From a virus: a stretch of DNA of 10,730 nt. Each line of letters starts with the position of its first letter. Within the stretch, counting starts at the first letter, position 1. The stretch lies in UHGV virus genome UHGV-1357920, one strand, 5' to 3'. Shown one piece after another: positions 1,579 through 8,191 of the stretch. A program made the translations under genes and the position numbers. Below the pieces are notes generated by a model, which worked only from the letters and a program-made list of their open reading frames with translations, ran no database searches and was not told the origin of the DNA.

Positions 1579-1767
1579 TCAGAATGGTAATTCGGATGGG
1601 CAGGAAAGAAATTCGCGCTCATTCATGCGCTCTCTTTGCGCCTGCCATAAACAAAGTTGTTTCTTTGATTTATCTCCCGCTTTACGCCAGTAACGAGCCT
1701 CAGCAATGTGATATTCTCTTTTTAATCGACTTAACTCTGGAGTTTTCGCCAGTTCTACCGGAATCAT
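1579..1767 (-). CDS. Small hypothetical protein (62 aa from ATG 1767; ORF track gives 1579..1779)
   Basis: The ATG at 1767-1765 is preceded by GGAGG at 5-nt spacing and overlaps the kil-like stop (ATGA). The earlier ATG at 1779 has no SD. No family recognised. Confidence 0.45.
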   Translation of the reverse strand: MIPVELAKTPELSRLKREYHIAEARYWRKAGDKSKKQLCLWQAQRERMNEREFLSCPSELPF

Positions 1768-1877
1768 TTTGACCTCCATTTTCTGTAGGCTTCTACGGCT
1801 TCACGAAACATCTTTTCATCGCCAATAAAAGTGGCGATAGTGAATTTAGTCTGGATAGCCATAAGTGTTTTATCCAT
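1764..1877 (-). CDS. kil: Kil-like small protein (37 aa)
   Basis: Internal start of track ORF 1764..2003, giving MDKTLMAIQTKFTIATFIGDEKMFREAVEAYRKWRSK. It has an AGGAG SD at 8-nt spacing, and its start overlaps the 3' end of cIII, as lambda kil does. The N-terminal sequence resembles what I recall of lambda Kil; this is memory only and the protein is shorter than lambda Kil (47 aa). Confidence 0.5.
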   Translation of the reverse strand: MDKTLMAIQTKFTIATFIGDEKMFREAVEAYRKWRSK

Positions 1878-2010
1878 TTTTGGGAACTCCTGGCTGATTA
1901 AGTATGTCGATAAGGCGTTTCCATCCATCACGTAATTTACGTGTGATTCGTTCAAGTAAAGATTCGGAAGGGCAGCCAGCAACAGGCCACCCTGCAATGG
2001 CATATTGCAT
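1870..2010 (-). CDS. cIII: CIII (FtsH inhibitor that stabilises CII), 46 aa
   Basis: MQYAIAGWPVAGCPSESLLERITRKLRDGWKRLIDILNQPGVPKNG matches lambda CIII as I remember it almost residue for residue, but ends 8 aa earlier. Strong SD AAGGAG precedes the ATG at 2010. The 80-aa track ORF (1870..2112) is an N-terminal over-extension into the terminator region. Confidence 0.8.
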   Translation of the reverse strand: MQYAIAGWPVAGCPSESLLERITRKLRDGWKRLIDILNQPGVPKNG

Positions 2011-2203: not shown

Positions 2204-2530
2204 CTACATAATCATTCCGGTTATTATTACCATTTCAATATCACTATCTTTCATAATGATTGGAGTTGAGTTATCAACTTTACTTTTACTCCATTTTCCT
2301 GCATCAGTTTTTACCGCTCCACAATAAGAAAGCCAATCATCATCACAATGTTCTGGATCACTAATTCTGACAAGAACACGTGATAGTGCTTTTTCGATAC
2401 TTTCATCACAATTAGCATTTGTGTAATTGCCGTGAGACGATTTCAAATCGTTAACTTCATCTTCATTGGCATCAAAAATATAGATTTCAGTCGACTCTGG
2501 AACATTTTCATAAACCATTAAAACTTTCAT
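2204..2530 (-). CDS. Hypothetical acidic, Cys-containing cytoplasmic protein, 108 aa (AT-rich gene)
   Basis: Intact ORF with a GGGG SD 5 nt from the ATG. The sequence is visibly AT-rich relative to the core phage genes. Acidic protein with three Cys; no motif recognised. Confidence 0.55.
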   Translation of the reverse strand: MKVLMVYENVPESTEIYIFDANEDEVNDLKSSHGNYTNANCDESIEKALSRVLVRISDPEHCDDDWLSYCGAVKTDAGKWSKSKVDNSTPIIMKDSDIEMVIITGMIM

Positions 2531-2552
2531 TTTTACCCCATATTGTTTATGC

Positions 2553-2579
2553 CAAAAATAAAGGCCGACTATGCGGCCT
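2553..2579 (-). terminator. Rho-independent terminator (minus strand) after the 149-aa membrane-protein gene
   Basis: Stem AGGCCG (2562-2567) / CGGCCT (2574-2579), loop ACTATG; on the minus strand it is followed by UUUAUUUUU (plus 2553-2561). Confidence 0.7.
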
Positions 2580-2583
2580 GAAA

Positions 2584-3033
2584 TTACTTAACCAATGATG
2601 CTGCATATTCGATAAGGTAAAGCTTTGGGGCCAGCCAAATTTTTAACCAAGTCATATTGGTTACTGCACCAATAATAAAAATCCCCCACAGAGTCAAAAC
2701 TCCAACCAATGGCACGATAAGAAGATTAATATCACCTTTGCTATCCCAAACCATTGTCGGCCTGTATTTGGGATTTCCTTTCTCCCATGAATATCCTTCA
2801 TCACCGATTTTACCTGTTTCAACTCTTTGCCACTGCTTCTTCATAAACCATAAAACCAGAGGGATTGTTAGAATGGCCATTAATGTTTTAATCAGACTGT
2901 CAACAATATTCCATAGCAGCAACTGATGAACAACATCAGGAATCTGTGCCTGGCTAAATGAAACAGCCGCGTCTATTCCATTGCTGGCTTTTTGCAGTAG
3001 TTCTACGAGAATCTTGTTTGCTTGTTCTTCCAT
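2584..3033 (-). CDS. Hypothetical two-TM inner-membrane protein, 149 aa (AT-rich gene)
   Basis: Intact ORF with SD AAGGTG. Two hydrophobic helices (about LIKTLMAILTIPLVLWFM and INLLIVPLVGVLTLWGIFIIGAV). AT-rich; its own terminator lies immediately downstream. No family recognised. Confidence 0.6.
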   Translation of the reverse strand: MEEQANKILVELLQKASNGIDAAVSFSQAQIPDVVHQLLLWNIVDSLIKTLMAILTIPLVLWFMKKQWQRVETGKIGDEGYSWEKGNPKYRPTMVWDSKGDINLLIVPLVGVLTLWGIFIIGAVTNMTWLKIWLAPKLYLIEYAASLVK

Positions 3034-3179: not shown

Positions 3180-3719
3180 ATGAGTAACTGGTGGCAGGAA
3201 CTATTACGTTTCTTCCTGCGTGGTCTTACGCTACAACAGTTAATTCATATGCTTATTATTTTAATTGCCTTGATAATAATCACCCCCGCATCAATTAAAG
3301 AGTGGGTAGATATAAGGAACCCAGAAATACTTCCAGATCACTGGATGTATTACGCAATGCTTTTGTGTATCAGTTATGTTCTGAACAGGGTGATGGAGTT
3401 TATATTTCTGGCATCTTCAGACAGATATAAAAAATATCTCAGTAAGAGAGATGAGGCTAAAGTAATTGTGGAGACTGAGCGCCTGTTCAATTCTCTGAGT
3501 ATTCAGGAAAAAGAGGTTTTAGCATTTGCTGTTATGGCAAATAACAAAATCGTACTTAAGCACGGCGATCCGGTCGCTTTATCTCTTATGAGAAAAGGCC
3601 TTCTCCATCGCTCAGGTGTGACTTACAGCGCGTCAGGTAAAGAGAAATTTGTTATACCTGACGTCTGGTTCCATGAGTGTTATATGCGCTTTGCTGGTAA
3701 AGCTGATGAGCTAATTTAG
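3180..3719 (+). CDS. sieB: SieB-like superinfection exclusion membrane protein, 179 aa
   Basis: Plus-strand ORF embedded among leftward pL-operon genes and convergent with N (its 3' end is 22 nt from the N stop), the arrangement I recall for lambda sieB. N-terminal hydrophobic helices (LIHMLIILIALIIITPA; YYAMLLCISYVLNRVMEFIFLA); SD GGAG 8 nt upstream. The call is based on position and membrane topology, not on a verified alignment. Confidence 0.5.
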   Translation: MSNWWQELLRFFLRGLTLQQLIHMLIILIALIIITPASIKEWVDIRNPEILPDHWMYYAMLLCISYVLNRVMEFIFLASSDRYKKYLSKRDEAKVIVETERLFNSLSIQEKEVLAFAVMANNKIVLKHGDPVALSLMRKGLLHRSGVTYSASGKEKFVIPDVWFHECYMRFAGKADELI

Positions 3720-3725
3720 TTCCTC

Positions 3726-3753
3726 GACGGCGGGGGATCGTCACCTCGCCGTC
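3726..3753. terminator. GC-rich hairpin at the convergent sieB-like / N junction (possible bidirectional terminator)
   Basis: Inverted repeat GACGGCG (3726-3732) / CGCCGTC (3747-3753), extendable to about 10 bp with a G-U pair. It overlaps the N stop codon and is followed on the plus strand by a partly T-rich tract (AGTTGTTTGGATTT). Confidence 0.4.
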
Positions 3754-4124
3754 AGTTGTTTGGATTTCCGGTAGCCTGCCGCGTAAATGGCTACGTTTGG
3801 AAGACATACACCAGTTTCTGGTTGCTTATGTCCAAACTCATTCGCGTACACAATGGCCGCTCGCTCCAGATTGCGTCTGTATTCTTTCTGTTGCCAGATC
3901 ACGTCCTGTGCCATGAACTTAATTGGCTTAGCGTCTTCTATGCGCTCAGGCGTTTCGTGAGTACCTTTAGCCTGAATCTGCGCTCTGCTTAGAGTAGGGC
4001 GGTGTAATACTTCTGAACTTATTGCTTCTTCGCGGGCCAGCACGCCGTTAGCTAATGCCTTTGCCTTTAAACGCTCACGACGACGAGAACGTGAATTGCC
4101 TTTGAACTGAGTTCTGCGTGTCAT
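3741..4124 (-). CDS. N: N-type transcription antiterminator, 127 aa
   Basis: N-terminal arginine-rich motif (GNSRSRRRERLKAKALANG). The C-terminus ...AIYAAGYRKSKQLTAR closely resembles the C-terminus of P22 gp24/N as I recall it. SD AGGAGG upstream; a P22-type boxB lies in the leader. This is the first gene of the leftward early operon. Confidence 0.8.
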   Translation of the reverse strand: MTRRTQFKGNSRSRRRERLKAKALANGVLAREEAISSEVLHRPTLSRAQIQAKGTHETPERIEDAKPIKFMAQDVIWQQKEYRRNLERAAIVYANEFGHKQPETGVCLPNVAIYAAGYRKSKQLTAR

Positions 4125-4372: not shown

Positions 4373-4416
4373 ACTTTATCGAAATGATAAATTAATGGCA
4401 ATAGCAAAATGATAAA
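4373..4416 (-). promoter_or_regulatory. pL promoter with OL operators (17-bp TTTATC-N5-GATAAA palindromes)
   Basis: OL1 at 4375-4391 is the perfect palindrome TTTATCgaaatGATAAA; OL2 at 4400-4416 is AATAGCaaaatGATAAA. On the minus strand the candidate -35 is TTGCCA (plus 4401-4396), followed by a 17-nt spacer and -10 TAAAGT (plus 4378-4373). The layout closely mirrors PR on the other side of cI. Confidence 0.5.
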
Positions 4417-4596
4417 TTTTCTTGGTTTTCAAATATCGTATTGATTCTTATGGTGTTTTATTTTGTTGTAGGAATTCGACAGGATAAATAAAGAGATTTG
4501 AGGGAGATCTGGATTGCGTTGTTTAGCAAGTTGTATCTATCAATTTTTCAACAAATACAATTGGTTATGTGTTTTTAGGTGTGGGGATCGTCAGGC

Positions 4597-4622
4597 AAAG
4601 AAAACCCGGCGCGGAAGCCGGG
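4597..4622 (-). terminator. Rho-independent terminator (minus strand) ending the cI / 341-aa-gene transcript (lambda tImm equivalent)
   Basis: Stem CCCGGC (4605-4610) / GCCGGG (4617-4622), loop GCGGAA; followed on the minus strand by UUUUCUUU (plus 4597-4604). It lies 14 nt past the stop of the 341-aa gene. Confidence 0.7.
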
Positions 4623-4635
4623 GTTAGATTTTCTG

Positions 4636-5661
4636 TTATGGGCGAGTGATGGTTGATGCGTTTCCGTTTTCTATTACACCTGCTCGTATCGTGTAGCTTC
4701 CCAAGATTTTTACTGTCCTGTTTTCTTTCATTGCATCAAACAGTATGGCGATCTCGTCTTTATCATCTATGAACGACGTGTCCACCGAAACAGGGAAACT
4801 GTCTTCACTAGATGGTTCGCGGCAGCTTAGGGTTATCTTTTCCGCAGTACGCTTGATTCCATCAATGACTAATTCAAGGTTTCTTTCTTCTTTTTTTGCT
4901 TTTTCGATAGGGTTTTTGATTAGTTCGTGGATTTCTTTGTTAGACAGTTCAACTGTGCTTGCGCCTGATATGACAATTTTGTCAGCATCAGACGCGCCTT
5001 TTAATACCCCTGTATACGCTTTTGCAGTATGCTCTTGAATCCCTTCGGCGCGCTCTACTGCATCTATGCCCGCTTTAGCTCTAATCGCCTCAAGCATTCC
5101 GTCCCTTAATATCGTCATGCGCTCGTTTTCTGATTTAATCTTGGCTTCTTCGAGCTTTGTTTCTTCTTGCTTGACTTCTACTTCGGCTTTTTTCTCTAAG
5201 TATGATGTACCAACCCATGCACCGCCTATAACGGTGACAGCAAACAAGAAGCATAATGTTTTTTGGCTAGGACTCATACCGTGTGTTACCTTCTCAAAGG
5301 CTTTACCGAATGCTTCAAAAAGCTCTGTTAATGCAGCAAGTATATCAGTACAACCTTCATTAATGGTAAAGATGATCTCTGCTTCTTCTTTATCTTTACC
5401 GGTTAACCTTTGAAGGTTGTCAGTTTTATATTTTATTAGTGTGAAAACTTTATAAATTTCAGTCTGAAATTCGCATAAACCCTGAGCTAGAGGAGATGGA
5501 AGCGTTCCGTTGTAGCGAGAAGGATCACCATAAATCTTAAAATTCACATTATTGAAGAGGTCTAACTTGATCCTGTCGATAGTGATCTCTTCGCCACCAT
5601 CTAACCTTGCAAACAAAGATTCAATGTCGTCCAGACTTGAAACATTAATAATATCTTTCAT
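4636..5661 (-). CDS. Hypothetical 341-aa single-pass membrane protein in the cI-downstream (rexAB-equivalent) slot; candidate lysogen-expressed exclusion/defence protein
   Basis: Intact ORF with SD AGGTG 5 nt from the ATG, immediately downstream of and co-oriented with cI. One predicted TM helix (about LCFLFAVTVIGGAWVGTSYL), a soluble N-terminal region of about 130 aa and a K/E-rich, probably helical, C-terminal region. AT-rich; followed by a strong terminator. No known motif recognised. Confidence 0.75.
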   Translation of the reverse strand: MKDIINVSSLDDIESLFARLDGGEEITIDRIKLDLFNNVNFKIYGDPSRYNGTLPSPLAQGLCEFQTEIYKVFTLIKYKTDNLQRLTGKDKEEAEIIFTINEGCTDILAALTELFEAFGKAFEKVTHGMSPSQKTLCFLFAVTVIGGAWVGTSYLEKKAEVEVKQEETKLEEAKIKSENERMTILRDGMLEAIRAKAGIDAVERAEGIQEHTAKAYTGVLKGASDADKIVISGASTVELSNKEIHELIKNPIEKAKKEERNLELVIDGIKRTAEKITLSCREPSSEDSFPVSVDTSFIDDKDEIAILFDAMKENRTVKILGSYTIRAGVIENGNASTITRP

Positions 5662-5741
5662 TACAACACCTTCGGCACAACCTTGCTAGTTAAATTAGTG
5701 ATTATAAAAATTGGATACTTACCAGCTATGTGACGATGAAG

Positions 5742-6446
5742 TCACGAACTTTTCAGCCATTCCCTTGCCTCGATGTCATCCAGATGGCGAGACTGCTTCA
5801 GAATACCAGCAACATACTCCACCTTTGCTACTTGATGATAAGGCAACGTTATTGGCCTGTGGTCCTGGTTGATGCTTGTAAATTGGTATTCTCCATCTCT
5901 GTCATAGCCAAGAACCTTAATCATGTTGTGTCCTTCAACGGTTCTGACAAACACCTCATCACCCGGGAATACTTTGGTGTTAGGCTCAATGAGTACATAT
6001 TCTCCTGATTTTATTCTGGGCCACATGCTGTCTCCTTTCACACGAAGACCAAAGGCATCTGGATCATCGCTATAAATTTTGAGCCACCCATCGCGCTCTT
6101 CGGTCATCTCGATGGCACCATCAACACCAAGAATTGCCTCACCAACCACGCGCACTAACCCTTTTCTTACCTGACCGACAAAAGTTAAAGAATCTGAGCA
6201 TGATGCAATTGGTGTTACATCATGTACCAAATCAAGCCACCCATTAGGTAACCCAAGCGCGGCTTCAAATTTTCTTGCTAGTTTATCCCCTATGTTTCGA
6301 GTGCTTTTTTCACCGGAGACTTGCGTGAGTTGAGAAGGGCTAACCCCAAGCTTATCGGCAAAGCTTGCATTAGTGTTACCCGCGATTTTTTTATGCTCAT
6401 CTAGCAAAAACGCCAGATTCGATTTGCGAATATCTTTGTTTTCCAT
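5742..6446 (-). CDS. cI: CI-type prophage repressor (N-terminal HTH plus C-terminal S24/LexA-like autocleavage domain), 234 aa
   Basis: The N-terminus has an XRE-type HTH (...ASFADKLGVSPSQLTQVSG...). The C-terminal domain carries the S24 peptidase signature GDSMWP (Ser nucleophile) and a downstream Lys (MIKVL). It is divergent from the cro-like gene across an operator-rich 113-bp spacer. Confidence 0.85.
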   Translation of the reverse strand: MENKDIRKSNLAFLLDEHKKIAGNTNASFADKLGVSPSQLTQVSGEKSTRNIGDKLARKFEAALGLPNGWLDLVHDVTPIASCSDSLTFVGQVRKGLVRVVGEAILGVDGAIEMTEERDGWLKIYSDDPDAFGLRVKGDSMWPRIKSGEYVLIEPNTKVFPGDEVFVRTVEGHNMIKVLGYDRDGEYQFTSINQDHRPITLPYHQVAKVEYVAGILKQSRHLDDIEAREWLKSS

Positions 6447-6464: not shown

Positions 6465-6532
6465 TTTAGCAAATGGATAAATACGCAATATGATAAATTT
6501 ACATTGCGGTTGATTTATCAAAATGGTAAAGT
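6465..6532 (+). promoter_or_regulatory. OR operators and PR promoter (PRM presumably in the same region, not mapped)
   Basis: Palindromic sites TTTAGCaaatgGATAAA (6465-6481) and TTTATCaaaatGGTAAA (6515-6531), with a further GATAAA half-site at 6492-6497. PR candidate: -35 TTGCGG (6504-6509), 17-nt spacer, -10 TAAAGT (6527-6532), followed by SD GGAGG (6550-6554) and the cro ATG at 6560. Confidence 0.5.
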
Positions 6533-6559: not shown

Positions 6560-6793
6560 ATGAGTAATGAACTACTACGCTGGCGAAAAGAGGCTTCTAG
6601 TGAGGAATGGAAGCGACTCGCCGCATTAGCGAAAACTTCAGTTGGCTATCTTGACCAGATTGCATATGGATTTCGAAGAGCTTCCCCTGATAAAGCGAAT
6701 GCAATCGAAGAAGCTACTCGTAATTTCACGGGTTATAAACCTGTGAAAAAGGAAAACCTGGTGTTCGTATCGCGTAGAGCATCGGCTGCATAA
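6560..6793 (+). CDS. cro: Cro-like early repressor (small HTH protein), 77 aa
   Basis: First gene of the rightward operon, divergent from cI, with strong SD GGAGG at 5-nt spacing. It contains a probable HTH (LAALAKTSVGYLDQIAYG). It is not lambda Cro by sequence; the call rests on position and size. Confidence 0.6.
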   Translation: MSNELLRWRKEASSEEWKRLAALAKTSVGYLDQIAYGFRRASPDKANAIEEATRNFTGYKPVKKENLVFVSRRASAA

Positions 6794-6931: not shown

Positions 6932-7231
6932 ATGGAACAAACAAGTTACAGCAAACTATCACAGCGTGACGTTGATCGCGCAGAAACAGATTTACTCATC
7001 AACCTGTCAACTATTACCCAGCGCGGTCTGGCAAAGATGATTGGCTGTCATGAATCGAAGATAAGCAGAACGGACTGGCGGTTTATTGCTTCGGTCCTGT
7101 GTGCTTTCGGAATGGCATCAGACATCAGTCCGATTAGCAGGGCTTTTAAGTATGCGCTTGATGAAATCACCAATAAAAAACGCCCGGTGTGCAAGACCGA
7201 GCGTTCTGATCAAATACAAATGGAATTTTAA
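6932..7231 (+). CDS. cII: CII transcriptional activator, 99 aa
   Basis: The C-terminus ...ITNKKRPVCKTERSDQIQMEF matches the lambda CII C-terminus (...LTNKKRPAATERSEQIQMEF) as I recall it. Central HTH region present; located downstream of cro and nutR. Confidence 0.85.
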   Translation: MEQTSYSKLSQRDVDRAETDLLINLSTITQRGLAKMIGCHESKISRTDWRFIASVLCAFGMASDISPISRAFKYALDEITNKKRPVCKTERSDQIQMEF

Positions 7232-7253: not shown

Positions 7254-7397
7254 ATGCGAAAAACGCAGGAAAATAAACGCGTTAATCACCGAAAAGATGT
7301 GCTACGTGACCAGTTTTATCAGGGGGTTAATCCAGCAATAGCTGTGCCACTGAGAGAAATACTTAACAGGTACAAAACTTCGGAGAAGTCAAAATGA
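7254..7397 (+). CDS. Small basic hypothetical protein, 47 aa (internal start of track ORF 7086..7397)
   Basis: ATG at 7254 is preceded by SD GAGG (7243-7246); its stop overlaps the start of the O-like gene (ATGA at 7394-7397), suggesting translational coupling. Sequence MRKTQENKRVNHRKDVLRDQFYQGVNPAIAVPLREILNRYKTSEKSK. Could be a spurious ORF. Confidence 0.4.
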   Translation: MRKTQENKRVNHRKDVLRDQFYQGVNPAIAVPLREILNRYKTSEKSK

Positions 7398-8191
7398 GCA
7401 TGAATCTTATGGCTAAGGCCATGAATATAAAGGTTGGCAACCCACTGAGAAAACTGGTTCTGATTAAACTTGCCGATAACGCCAATGATAATGGCGAATG
7501 CTGGCCTTCATATCAACATGTCGCTGACCAGTGTGAGGTGAGCAGATCGACAGTAAAAAGTCACATTAGGGCACTGGAAGAGATGGGGCTTTTGAAAAGG
7601 GAATTCAGAAGAAAAGGAGAGCTTAACCAGTCAAACGTTTTTTATCTGACGCTGGATAATGCACAACAAATCCAACCAGAATCAGGTGGGGCAGGAGCTG
7701 CCCGGGGTGGGGCAGGAGCTGCCCGGGGTGGGGCAGGAGCTGCCCTAGGGGGTGGGGCAGGAGCTGCCCCCAGAACCTATCACTCTTTTGAACCAGTCAA
7801 TGAACCTAAAAACATTATGTTCGAACATGTCCGAACGGAGTGTGAAAAAACTCCTGACCGTCACGAAGAAACCGACAAGGCATTCGAGGAAATATTCTGG
7901 TGTGCAGGCATGCGGAAAGCCGGGAAGAAAAACGCAGCTTCGGCATTCAGAACACAGTTCAGGGAATGGCGTAAAACTACCAGGGGTACGGCAAGCGAGT
8001 TTGCCACGATGCTGGCAGAAGACATCGCATGCAGGAGTGGTAAGCAGTTCGGATTCGACAGGTTGTTACCATCGAGCTACCTGAACGGTCAACGCTGGAA
8101 CGACGAGAAGCCAGAAACTATTCAACCGCAACCCAAACCATCATCCGCAATCACCGTATCGAAAACTGGCTACGTGTTTTTCGACAGGTGA
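7394..8191 (+). CDS. Replication initiator (lambda O-like role) with N-terminal winged-HTH and an iteron-encoded Gly/Ala-rich linker, 265 aa
   Basis: The N-terminal HTH region (CWPSYQHVADQCEVSRSTVKSHIRALEEMGLLKRE) is typical of phage replication-initiation proteins. The central peptide repeat GGAGAAR is encoded by four tandem DNA iterons. The gene sits after cII, where lambda O and P22 gene 18 lie. Confidence 0.7.
   Translation: MSMNLMAKAMNIKVGNPLRKLVLIKLADNANDNGECWPSYQHVADQCEVSRSTVKSHIRALEEMGLLKREFRRKGELNQSNVFYLTLDNAQQIQPESGGAGAARGGAGAARGGAGAALGGGAGAAPRTYHSFEPVNEPKNIMFEHVRTECEKTPDRHEETDKAFEEIFWCAGMRKAGKKNAASAFRTQFREWRKTTRGTASEFATMLAEDIACRSGKQFGFDRLLPSSYLNGQRWNDEKPETIQPQPKPSSAITVSKTGYVFFDR
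7686..7769. repeat. Four tandem iterons (GTGGGGCAGGAGCTGCCC; period 21, 21, 24 bp), putative phage origin inside the initiator gene
   Basis: Directly visible copies at 7686-7703, 7707-7724, 7728-7745 and 7752-7769, followed by a relatively AT-rich stretch (about 7775-7835). This is the same architecture as lambda ori inside O. Confidence 0.7.

Follow-up and report, generated by a model that had tools for sequence, protein, structure and literature searches.

Analyzing a 10,730-nucleotide (nt) stretch of the virus genome UHGV-1357920 (hereafter the window), which contains the immunity and early region of a lambdoid prophage with H-19B immunity, we found that the gene located between the cI repressor and the terminator of the immunity transcript is a self-contained accessory ("moron") cassette in a variable slot. 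Its 341-amino acid (aa) product, predicted to cross the membrane once, belongs to a new, unnamed protein family in a known kind of place. On balance, if only just, we take its function to be anti-phage in some form; more tentatively, we propose a lysogen-expressed envelope protein that would block entry of superinfecting genomes, a narrower claim that we regard as possible and short of probable. An earlier note on this DNA had singled out the same gene as an undescribed defense candidate expressed in the lysogen, and its claims are taken up below where the evidence bears on them.

An exchangeable cassette behind the cI repressor

On the minus strand the order of elements from right to left is cI, the 341-codon open reading frame (ORF), a terminator hairpin, operators with a promoter, and N:

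5742..6446, minus strand: cI repressor with helix-turn-helix (HTH) and Peptidase_S24 domains (Pfam PF00717, E=3.8e-16; PHROG 4)
4623..5719, minus strand: swappable cargo cassette of 1,097 bp with the gene, its Shine-Dalgarno (SD) sequence and a 58-bp 5' leader, delimited by flank comparison
5667..5673, minus strand: SD-like GAAGGTG, 5 nt before the ATG (5661-5659)
4636..5661, minus strand: coding sequence of the 341-aa protein, a predicted single-pass membrane protein of the PHROG 6191 family, from the ORF list (stop codon 4636-4638)
4605..4622, minus strand: intrinsic terminator hairpin of the cI/immunity transcript, then UUUUCUUU (G+C hairpin and U-tract, from the scan)
4373..4417, minus strand: OL operators and an overlapping pL-like promoter, from motif search and promoter scan
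3741..4124, minus strand: N (N_peptide, E=2e-15)

The earlier note had placed the gene in the equivalent of the lambda rexAB slot, directly after cI, and the layout bears this out: the cI stop at 5742 is followed by the gene (5661..4636), by the terminator (4622..4605) and, as the note had also said, by OL and pL. The motif ATTTATCAT is present in exactly three copies in the window, two in OL (4384-4392 and 4409-4417) and one in OR, at 6490 in the cI-cro interval. Both OL copies overlap the pL-like promoter called at 4401..4373 by the promoter scan, and OL2 and OL3 are annotated on the homologous stretch of GenBank GQ499358. The terminator described as strong is present, but it is canonical and not exceptionally strong (a 56-nt stretch folding at -14.6 kcal/mol, z=-1.7); moreover, it is part of the backbone and not of the cassette, because the hairpin lies inside the flank common to phages with other cargos.

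Comparison with four Escherichia coli prophages with other cargos revealed that the junctions 4622/4623 and 5719/5720 are the same in all of them, the flanks being 90-99% identical; in the window, the 341-aa gene is the sole ORF between these junctions. In E. coli, the same repressor (WP_000428098.1 or its near-identical variant WP_021572762.1) and flanks enclose at least six alternative cargos, or a remnant, in the slot equivalent to 4623-5719 (loci L052-L055, L068 and L069). Most often among the O26 and O157 strains listed, the slot encodes a HigB-family toxin, an HTH protein and a 134-aa product, as in O26:H11 11368, O157 86-24 and strain H19; other cargos are DUF3024 with a 162-aa and a 206-aa gene, a serine protease of the SDH/Clp fold, and either of two unlike small-gene pairs, and in one state only the remnant of a pseudogene is left. 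One repressor backbone swaps at least seven slot states at exact junctions. The claim that this slot is a cargo hotspot, which the alternatives found with an identical WP_000428098.1 and its flanks uphold, agrees with a published account in which the region between cI and N is a hotspot of mosaic diversity, with rexAB in lambda and bstA in BTP1 (Owen et al., PMC8585504). None of the alternative cargos had a PADLOC match except DUF3024. DefenseFinder output contains a defense label, 'FS_HP_SDH_sah' (PMC13532340), under which the slot protease might or might not fall. The 162-aa and 206-aa genes following DUF3024 were considered as a split version of the 341-aa protein and rejected (hhalign probability <1%).

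The position of the cassette also bears on its expression. Scanning of the window called no terminator-like site between cI and the 341-aa ORF. Given that the gene lies upstream of pL with a terminator between them and with none after cI, it can be read only from the cI promoters (pRM and pRE) or from a weak promoter of its own. The earlier note had allowed for an own promoter, for which we found no good support: a TATAAT at 5706..5701 is paired with a poor -35 element (2/6), was not called by the promoter scan and is not kept in all homologous cassettes, being lost or degenerate there. The SD sequence that the note had assigned to the gene is in place. The cI promoter is the likely source of cargo transcription; by read-through past cI, pRM would transcribe the 341-aa gene in the lysogen and pRE at establishment. 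As judged from the layout, transcription via the cI promoters would mean that the product is made in the lysogen and not from a lytic early promoter. In lysogens, cI is among the most transcribed prophage genes and the repressor promoter among the most active (PMC8585504).

That the ORF is a real gene is indicated by a full-length match to the PHROG 6191 profile (function unknown; E=1.3e-98, residues 5-340 on positions 8-333 of 338), by 59 homologue clusters with 44-100% identity in a word-indexed search, and by a ratio of nonsynonymous to synonymous substitution (dN/dS) of ~0.06 overall in eight unsaturated homologue pairs. The genera of these clusters include Escherichia, Citrobacter, Cronobacter, Pantoea, Dickeya, Yersinia, Serratia, Klebsiella and Salmonella. 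By region, dN/dS in the same pairs was 0.15 in the N-domain, 0.03 in the helical part and 0.026 in the C-domain, so that no diversifying selection was seen in the C-domain. The gene had been called AT-rich, which is true to a modest degree and no further (40.4% G+C vs 44.7% in the window). The word 'undescribed' has to be qualified, since the protein itself had been deposited: at 100% identity it is encoded by the cultured phages PhiR12_1 to _5, grown on E. coli K-12 and C, where GenBank labels it 'T2SS GspM containing protein' (T2SS, type II secretion system), and it falls in PHROG 6191. The candidate is directly testable, because these phages, with the identical gene, can be propagated on laboratory E. 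coli. Some prophages of Shiga toxin-producing E. coli (STEC) encode a truncated or recombinant form of 245 aa, which matches 56% of the protein at 96% identity (P0039, E. coli STEC1585 (H30); 53 contigs).

An unnamed family of predicted single-pass membrane proteins

A profile search against 1.84 billion representatives returned 721 clusters (50% identity) at E≤1e-3 and 276 at E≤1e-10. Among the 150 matches listed, full-length members have ~300-415 aa and shorter fragments are present as well; the named members, from Xenorhabdus, Aeromonas, Arsenophonus, Oceanimonas, Vibrio/Photobacterium and Vreelandella, are every one annotated as 'hypothetical'. The family behind this one slot cargo, more than 700 clusters in size, has neither a name nor a domain entry nor a solved relative. 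Pfam gave no family at E≤0.1 for the 341-aa protein and none that was consistent among 66 distant relatives scanned singly. In NCBIfam the protein reached only a sub-threshold HP1233 score (15 bits vs a cut-off of 50) and the 66 relatives nothing, and in PADLOC-DB v2.0 (2023) it matched no family, with four single-member, chance-level matches among the relatives. These results agree with the earlier note in that no enzymatic domain is recognizable, and the PADLOC check that the note had suggested matched no system. Sequence searches of the PDB returned only PDCD5 (E=0.38) with profile A1 and, with profile A2, the membrane anchors of MotB, ATP synthase b and PBP5 (E ~0.01-0.03), matches that we read as compositional, i.e. 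a transmembrane (TM) helix followed by a charged helix, and not as homology. A scan of genome contigs gave only 3 loci, and a second homology search that started from the distant alignment and was capped in its number of candidates added next to nothing. The Gifsy GiPD474 protein carries an ATPase domain and is unrelated. Searching the literature for PhiR12, the accessions, PHROG 6191 or DUF3024, we found nothing.

The protein was modeled with AlphaFold2 from a 31-sequence alignment (mean pLDDT 82, pTM 0.70), and the following parts were distinguished:

5272..5661, minus strand: N-terminal alpha/beta domain, residues 1-130, predicted cytoplasmic (AlphaFold2, pLDDT 80-95)
5197..5259, minus strand: predicted TM helix, residues 135-155, TLCFLFAVTVIGGAWVGTSYL (Kyte-Doolittle 19-residue score 1.65)
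4987..5196, minus strand: charged linker and helical hairpin, residues 156-225, 41% charged (AlphaFold2 and composition)
4639..4986, minus strand: residues 226-341, beta-rich C-terminal part with an OB-fold-like barrel at its end (AlphaFold2)

In the model itself the alpha/beta N-domain extends over residues 1-125 and is followed by a helix (131-151), a low-confidence linker (153-167), two helices (166-196 and 199-222), a small beta unit with a helix (228-249) and a barrel of strands (256-339). The earlier note had described a soluble N-terminal region of about 130 aa with one TM helix, which the model supports, and a long K/E-rich, probably coiled-coil C-terminal region, of which the charged helical part at residues 156-225 stands while residues 226-341 are instead beta-rich and OB-fold-like.

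Residues 135-155 are uncharged. In all 66 members of alignment A2 (the query and 65 distant relatives) the most hydrophobic 19-residue window within the range searched fell at about residues 115-160, with Kyte-Doolittle scores of 0.9-3.1, and an uncharged stretch with a median length of 21 was found at the same position in 96 of 96 members (the 66 in A2 and 30 more in A1). The TM sequence itself is not conserved; a GM(T/S)GxQK-like motif usually precedes it and D or E usually follows directly. From this pattern we take the hydrophobic helix to be a true membrane anchor and the protein to be, as predicted, single-pass. The 130-aa N-domain has no signal peptide. Because of this, and because throughout the family a basic residue precedes the TM helix and an acidic one follows it, we infer that the N-domain is cytoplasmic and that the hairpin and the OB-like domain are periplasmic (N-in/C-out). 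Net flank charge amounts to +0.4 before the helix and -1.1 after it, with equal counts of K+R.

The N-domain is the most conserved part across the wide family (mean identity 28% vs 18-22% elsewhere in A2). Nearly invariant positions are only G45, L86, G103 and M129, the last of which lies six residues before the TM helix; no polar residue of catalytic type is invariant, and an enzyme is therefore unlikely. An internal start at Met129 (window 5275-5277), which would yield a product of the TM helix plus the periplasmic part, was considered by analogy with sieB/esc and holin/antiholin pairs and was rejected: the AAGG upstream follows from the codons for K-V, and the 45%-identity group lacks it and showed no conserved ribosome-binding site before Met129.

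By its model the C-terminal domain is OB-fold-like. Structural comparison with OB domains gave identities of 3-23% and Z below 7; ligand-binding residues are not transferable from these matches, and unlike the OB domains of RPA, SSB and Stn1-Ten1, of tRNA-synthetase anticodon-binding regions, of AB5-toxin B subunits and of YhhM, the one described here is predicted to be periplasmic. Foldseek, which the earlier note had also proposed for a predicted structure, returned a sole significant match in BFVD, the protein Q6NE06 of Leptospira phage LE1, whose function is unknown (E=4e-5, 384 aligned columns). This match is full-length and likewise comes from an uncharacterized protein of a temperate phage, but identity is 10%, the TM-score 0.27-0.29, and the domains are arranged differently. 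The N-domain was covered by none of the structural matches listed.

The location of relatives extends the picture obtained for the slot. In 29 of 52 homologue loci the gene lies immediately downstream of a cI-type repressor gene and in the same orientation; the repressors of those loci form two S24-type sequence clusters, one of which closely resembles lambda cI. A third kind, a Rac-type HTH protein of 128 aa without the S24 domain, precedes the homologue encoded in three of those loci (called as a 128-aa ORF in cluster c1). The linkage to repressors persists at 39-47% protein identity, in Arsenophonus and Raoultella, and a further repressor-linked homologue is found in Pantoea. In Yersinia aldovae one extra gene of 132 aa, which is not a divergent DUF3024, stands between cI and the homologue, and a lambdoid prophage has the order cI, DUF3024, homologue. 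Elsewhere, the Yersinia ruckeri homologue is at the end of a Mu/P2-like prophage beside the tail-fiber invertase, with DUF3024 before it, and other tail-fiber-adjacent homologues were found in Serratia and in the IMG/VR loci L039-L046. In Salmonella the homologue is at the edge of an element beside a ~2,900-aa protein (LPD5, LPD1, MuF_C, LPD38), with different host flanks. Another homologue is directly upstream of a satellite-type integrase, 2 kb from AbiD/Abi_2 (AbiD, E=1.5e-59), and a 24%-identical member has Bro-N and SSB genes nearby and shares its contig with a type I HsdR gene at a distance of ~3.5 kb. The family resides preferentially where prophages and satellites keep lysogen-expressed cargo.

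DUF3024, a 113-aa protein that matches the PADLOC candidate PDC-S43 (E=2.4e-42), is encoded immediately upstream of homologues in two unrelated phage backgrounds, the copies being 67% identical. It also occupies the cI slot of other E. coli with different partners and is absent from the cassette of the window; it could be a recurrent partner or just another tenant of the hotspot. Its copies are at:

4596-4937 in loci L007-L010
6504-6845 in locus L065, of loci L065-L067
1654-1995 in locus L068

In L039-L046 the homologue is followed by a gene for a 252-aa protein (1134-1892 in L041) that is hydrophobic near its N-terminus and then helical and charged over a long stretch. Neither Pfam nor PADLOC matched this product, and the gene may likewise be accessory and encode a membrane protein.

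Proposed envelope exclusion and its alternatives

An anti-phage function of some kind, which we hold to be slightly the more probable state of affairs, could be exerted in several ways. According to the version we tentatively favor, the protein is made in the lysogen and resides in the envelope, where a periplasmic stalk and OB module would bind a conserved element, contributed by host or phage, of the path by which genomes are delivered; binding would block productive DNA entry of the superinfecting phage, and the conserved cytoplasmic N-domain may serve assembly or coupling. Exclusion at genome entry is slightly preferred because most of the protein is predicted to be periplasmic, because conservation of that predicted periplasmic domain is high and because the cassette brings no antidote gene along; the C-domain dN/dS of 0.026 would fit a conserved binding partner. 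Such a protein would share with P22 SieA, T4 Imm and Sp, HK97 gp15 and Sie2009 that these are phage or prophage inner-membrane proteins acting at genome entry, and the lactococcal Sie2009 genes are also next to a repressor gene. Unlike the 341-aa protein, however, they are small, have neither a conserved cytoplasmic domain nor an OB-fold ectodomain, and show no detectable homology to it. If exclusion is true, the protein would represent a new architecture of prophage immunity, in which a single TM helix joins a cytoplasmic domain to a stalk with an OB fold, and would offer a handle on envelope events during genome entry, a step with few known defense proteins. If the function is not defense, the protein would still be a widespread lysogen-expressed envelope protein worth naming.

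Several points weigh against exclusion at the envelope. The 341-aa protein has no homology to a known exclusion or defense protein in Pfam or PADLOC, the case for defense being drawn from position and neighbors, and accessory slots also hold virulence, stress and toxin-antitoxin genes. The known injection blockers T4 Imm, HK97 gp15 and Sie2009 are small, and a simple plug could do without 130 conserved residues in the cytoplasm. Since the ligands of OB folds may be nucleic acids, sugars or proteins, the fold names none of them. The N-in topology is a prediction, the K+R counts on the two sides of the TM helix being equal and only the net charge differing, and at a pTM of 0.70 the model might pack together two halves that would, as domains on opposite sides of the membrane, be apart. 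Finally, the gene is rare in E. coli, being complete in 3 of 5,426 complete genomes (E. coli M15, RM10740 and LZSFT34).

The conserved cytoplasmic domain is better explained by sensing or regulation than by a plug, and this is one argument for an abortive-infection effector contained in one chain, which we consider unlikely. The protein would be inert in the inner membrane until its N-domain or its periplasmic OB domain detects a phage cue, upon which the TM helices would assemble into a lesion, the membrane potential would collapse and the infected cell would die before phage release, as if RexA and RexB were fused in logic. Given that no enzymatic motif is present, the membrane is the only obvious effector for such a mechanism. 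T4 holin T, to which this version may be likened, has one TM helix and a large periplasmic domain, and the small cytoplasmic DUF3024/PDC-S43, a recurring neighbor, could be a partner or regulator in some lineages. Both characterized occupants of the slot, rexAB and bstA, are abortive systems (PMC8585504). Against these arguments, a lethal pore-former co-transcribed with cI and lacking an antidote gene in the window needs very tight self-inhibition, the protein has one TM helix only, and neither Pfam nor PADLOC connects it with holins, RexB or any other membrane effector.

The comparison with the two occupants is itself mixed. With lambda rexA-rexB the 341-aa gene shares the slot, after cI and before the immunity terminator and OL/pL, as well as the expected expression from the repressor promoter in the lysogen, and RexB, like the 341-aa protein, is located in the membrane. 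Rex, however, is a two-gene pair of a sensor and a multi-pass channel, RexB having four TM helices, whereas the cargo described here is one gene whose product has one hydrophobic segment and, as predicted, a large soluble domain on either side of the membrane. Searches of Pfam (E≤0.1) and of the PADLOC models gave nothing that would link it to RexA or RexB, in line with the earlier note's statement that it is neither of them. BstA of the Salmonella prophage BTP1 is likewise a single accessory gene after the repressor, with conserved synteny with repressors across genera and a terminator next to it (PMC8585504), and acts at sites of phage DNA replication (PMC8585504). Unlike BstA, the 341-aa protein has a predicted TM helix, and it matched no PADLOC or Pfam entry that would connect it with BstA or with the N-terminal DNA-binding domain of BstA. 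PADLOC-DB v2.0 presumably holds a BstA model. No aba-like element was seen near the 341-aa gene, none having been sought.

Expression from the repressor promoter would equally suit a lysogenic-conversion gene unrelated to defense, acting in envelope stress tolerance, adhesion, colonization or virulence, or nutrient uptake, and accessory slots carry such genes too. The hosts include pathogens and symbionts (STEC, Salmonella, Yersinia, Cronobacter, Xenorhabdus and Arsenophonus), and the strong purifying selection fits a function directed at the host. Yet neighbors at sites other than cI are defense-type genes (AbiD, PDC-S43/DUF3024) or the end regions of phages and satellites, and the end regions of P2/P4 elements are reportedly known defense hotspots. 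Neither Pfam nor NCBIfam showed similarity to an adhesin, toxin or transporter family, and a niche-specific virulence trait is disfavored because the family spans many gamma-proteobacterial lifestyles. We regard conversion of this kind as rather improbable, on a par with the abortive mechanism.

A slim chance remains for a single-chain transmembrane immune receptor, in which a periplasmic OB domain on a stalk senses phage genome delivery. What the OB domain would detect, before the genome reaches the cytoplasm, is DNA or proteins ejected by the phage or the damage done by them, and the signal would pass through one TM helix to the conserved cytoplasmic output domain. If this were true, anti-phage immunity would have a periplasmic sensing layer that is portable cargo of lambdoid, Mu/P2-like and satellite elements and is spread across Gammaproteobacteria and, by fold, to a spirochaete phage.

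Tight linkage to three kinds of repressor genes, together with domains on both sides of the membrane, which suit signaling, could point to a regulator of the prophage's own life cycle: an anti-sigma topology like that of RseA would convey the envelope state to the lysis-lysogeny switch, or the protein would aid the transition to lytic growth, as proposed for RexA and RexB, which a preprint is said to describe as assisting the lysogeny-to-lytic transition. We hold this to be very unlikely. The family is also found at tail-fiber ends of prophages, at a satellite integrase and in other elements without a nearby repressor, and its occurrence at repressor-free sites argues for a portable function independent of the switch. 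Moreover, the switch does not need the 341-aa protein, since sibling phages with an identical repressor lack the gene.

Least credible, to the point of being negligible, is a GspM-type component of a T2SS or pilus machine, which the GenBank label of the PhiR12 records and a shared shape (a single-pass inner-membrane protein with a periplasmic helical segment and then a small domain) would suggest, but which is contradicted by profile and fold searches: there is no match to the T2SS M family of Pfam at E≤0.1, none in the 66 relatives, no secretion gene is nearby in any locus examined, and whereas GspM has a short cytoplasmic N-terminus and a ferredoxin-like periplasmic domain, the 341-aa protein has a 130-aa N-domain and a predicted OB-like barrel instead.

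Other features of the window

Just past N is a SieB-family superinfection-exclusion gene (3180..3719, plus strand; PF14163, E=3e-20; PHROG 1301, E=4e-94), in the orientation opposite to the pL transcript. It is therefore a second likely lysogen-expressed exclusion gene of the window besides the 341-aa candidate. The SieB family resembles the 341-aa protein as a lysogen-expressed membrane exclusion protein of lambdoid phages would; in contrast to it, the 341-aa protein has no PF14163 match and its gene is in a different transcription unit from the SieB gene of the window.

To the right of cI, the early genes are:

6560..6793, rightward: cro
6932..7231, rightward: cII (Phage_CII match)

They are followed in the same direction by an HTH_36 replication initiator and then by a Toprim/DnaB primase-helicase. 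Within the initiator ORF (7394-8191), 3.9 tandem copies of a 21-bp unit, GGTGGGGCAGGAGCTGCCCGG, extend from 7685 to 7769; they encode repeated GGAGAAR peptides and are probably origin iterons. In E. coli M15 the cassette is identical, but replication is encoded by another module, with a DnaB-type helicase, and recT is interrupted by an IS3; the backbone around the cassette is therefore mosaic.

On the left, the most AT-rich part of the window (2204-3033, minus strand; 34-40% G+C) belongs to the pL operon and holds two conserved genes of unknown function, which may be further accessory cargo: one encodes 149 aa with hydrophobic stretches (PHROG 3054, E=1e-62), the other an acidic product of 108 aa (PHROG 4658, E=3e-38). 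The leftward early region (306-1570 and 1764-2003, minus strand) is made up of an AAA_24 ATPase at 890-1570, an adjoining 195-aa ORF without a Pfam match, and a Kil homologue (PF06301, E=6e-21).

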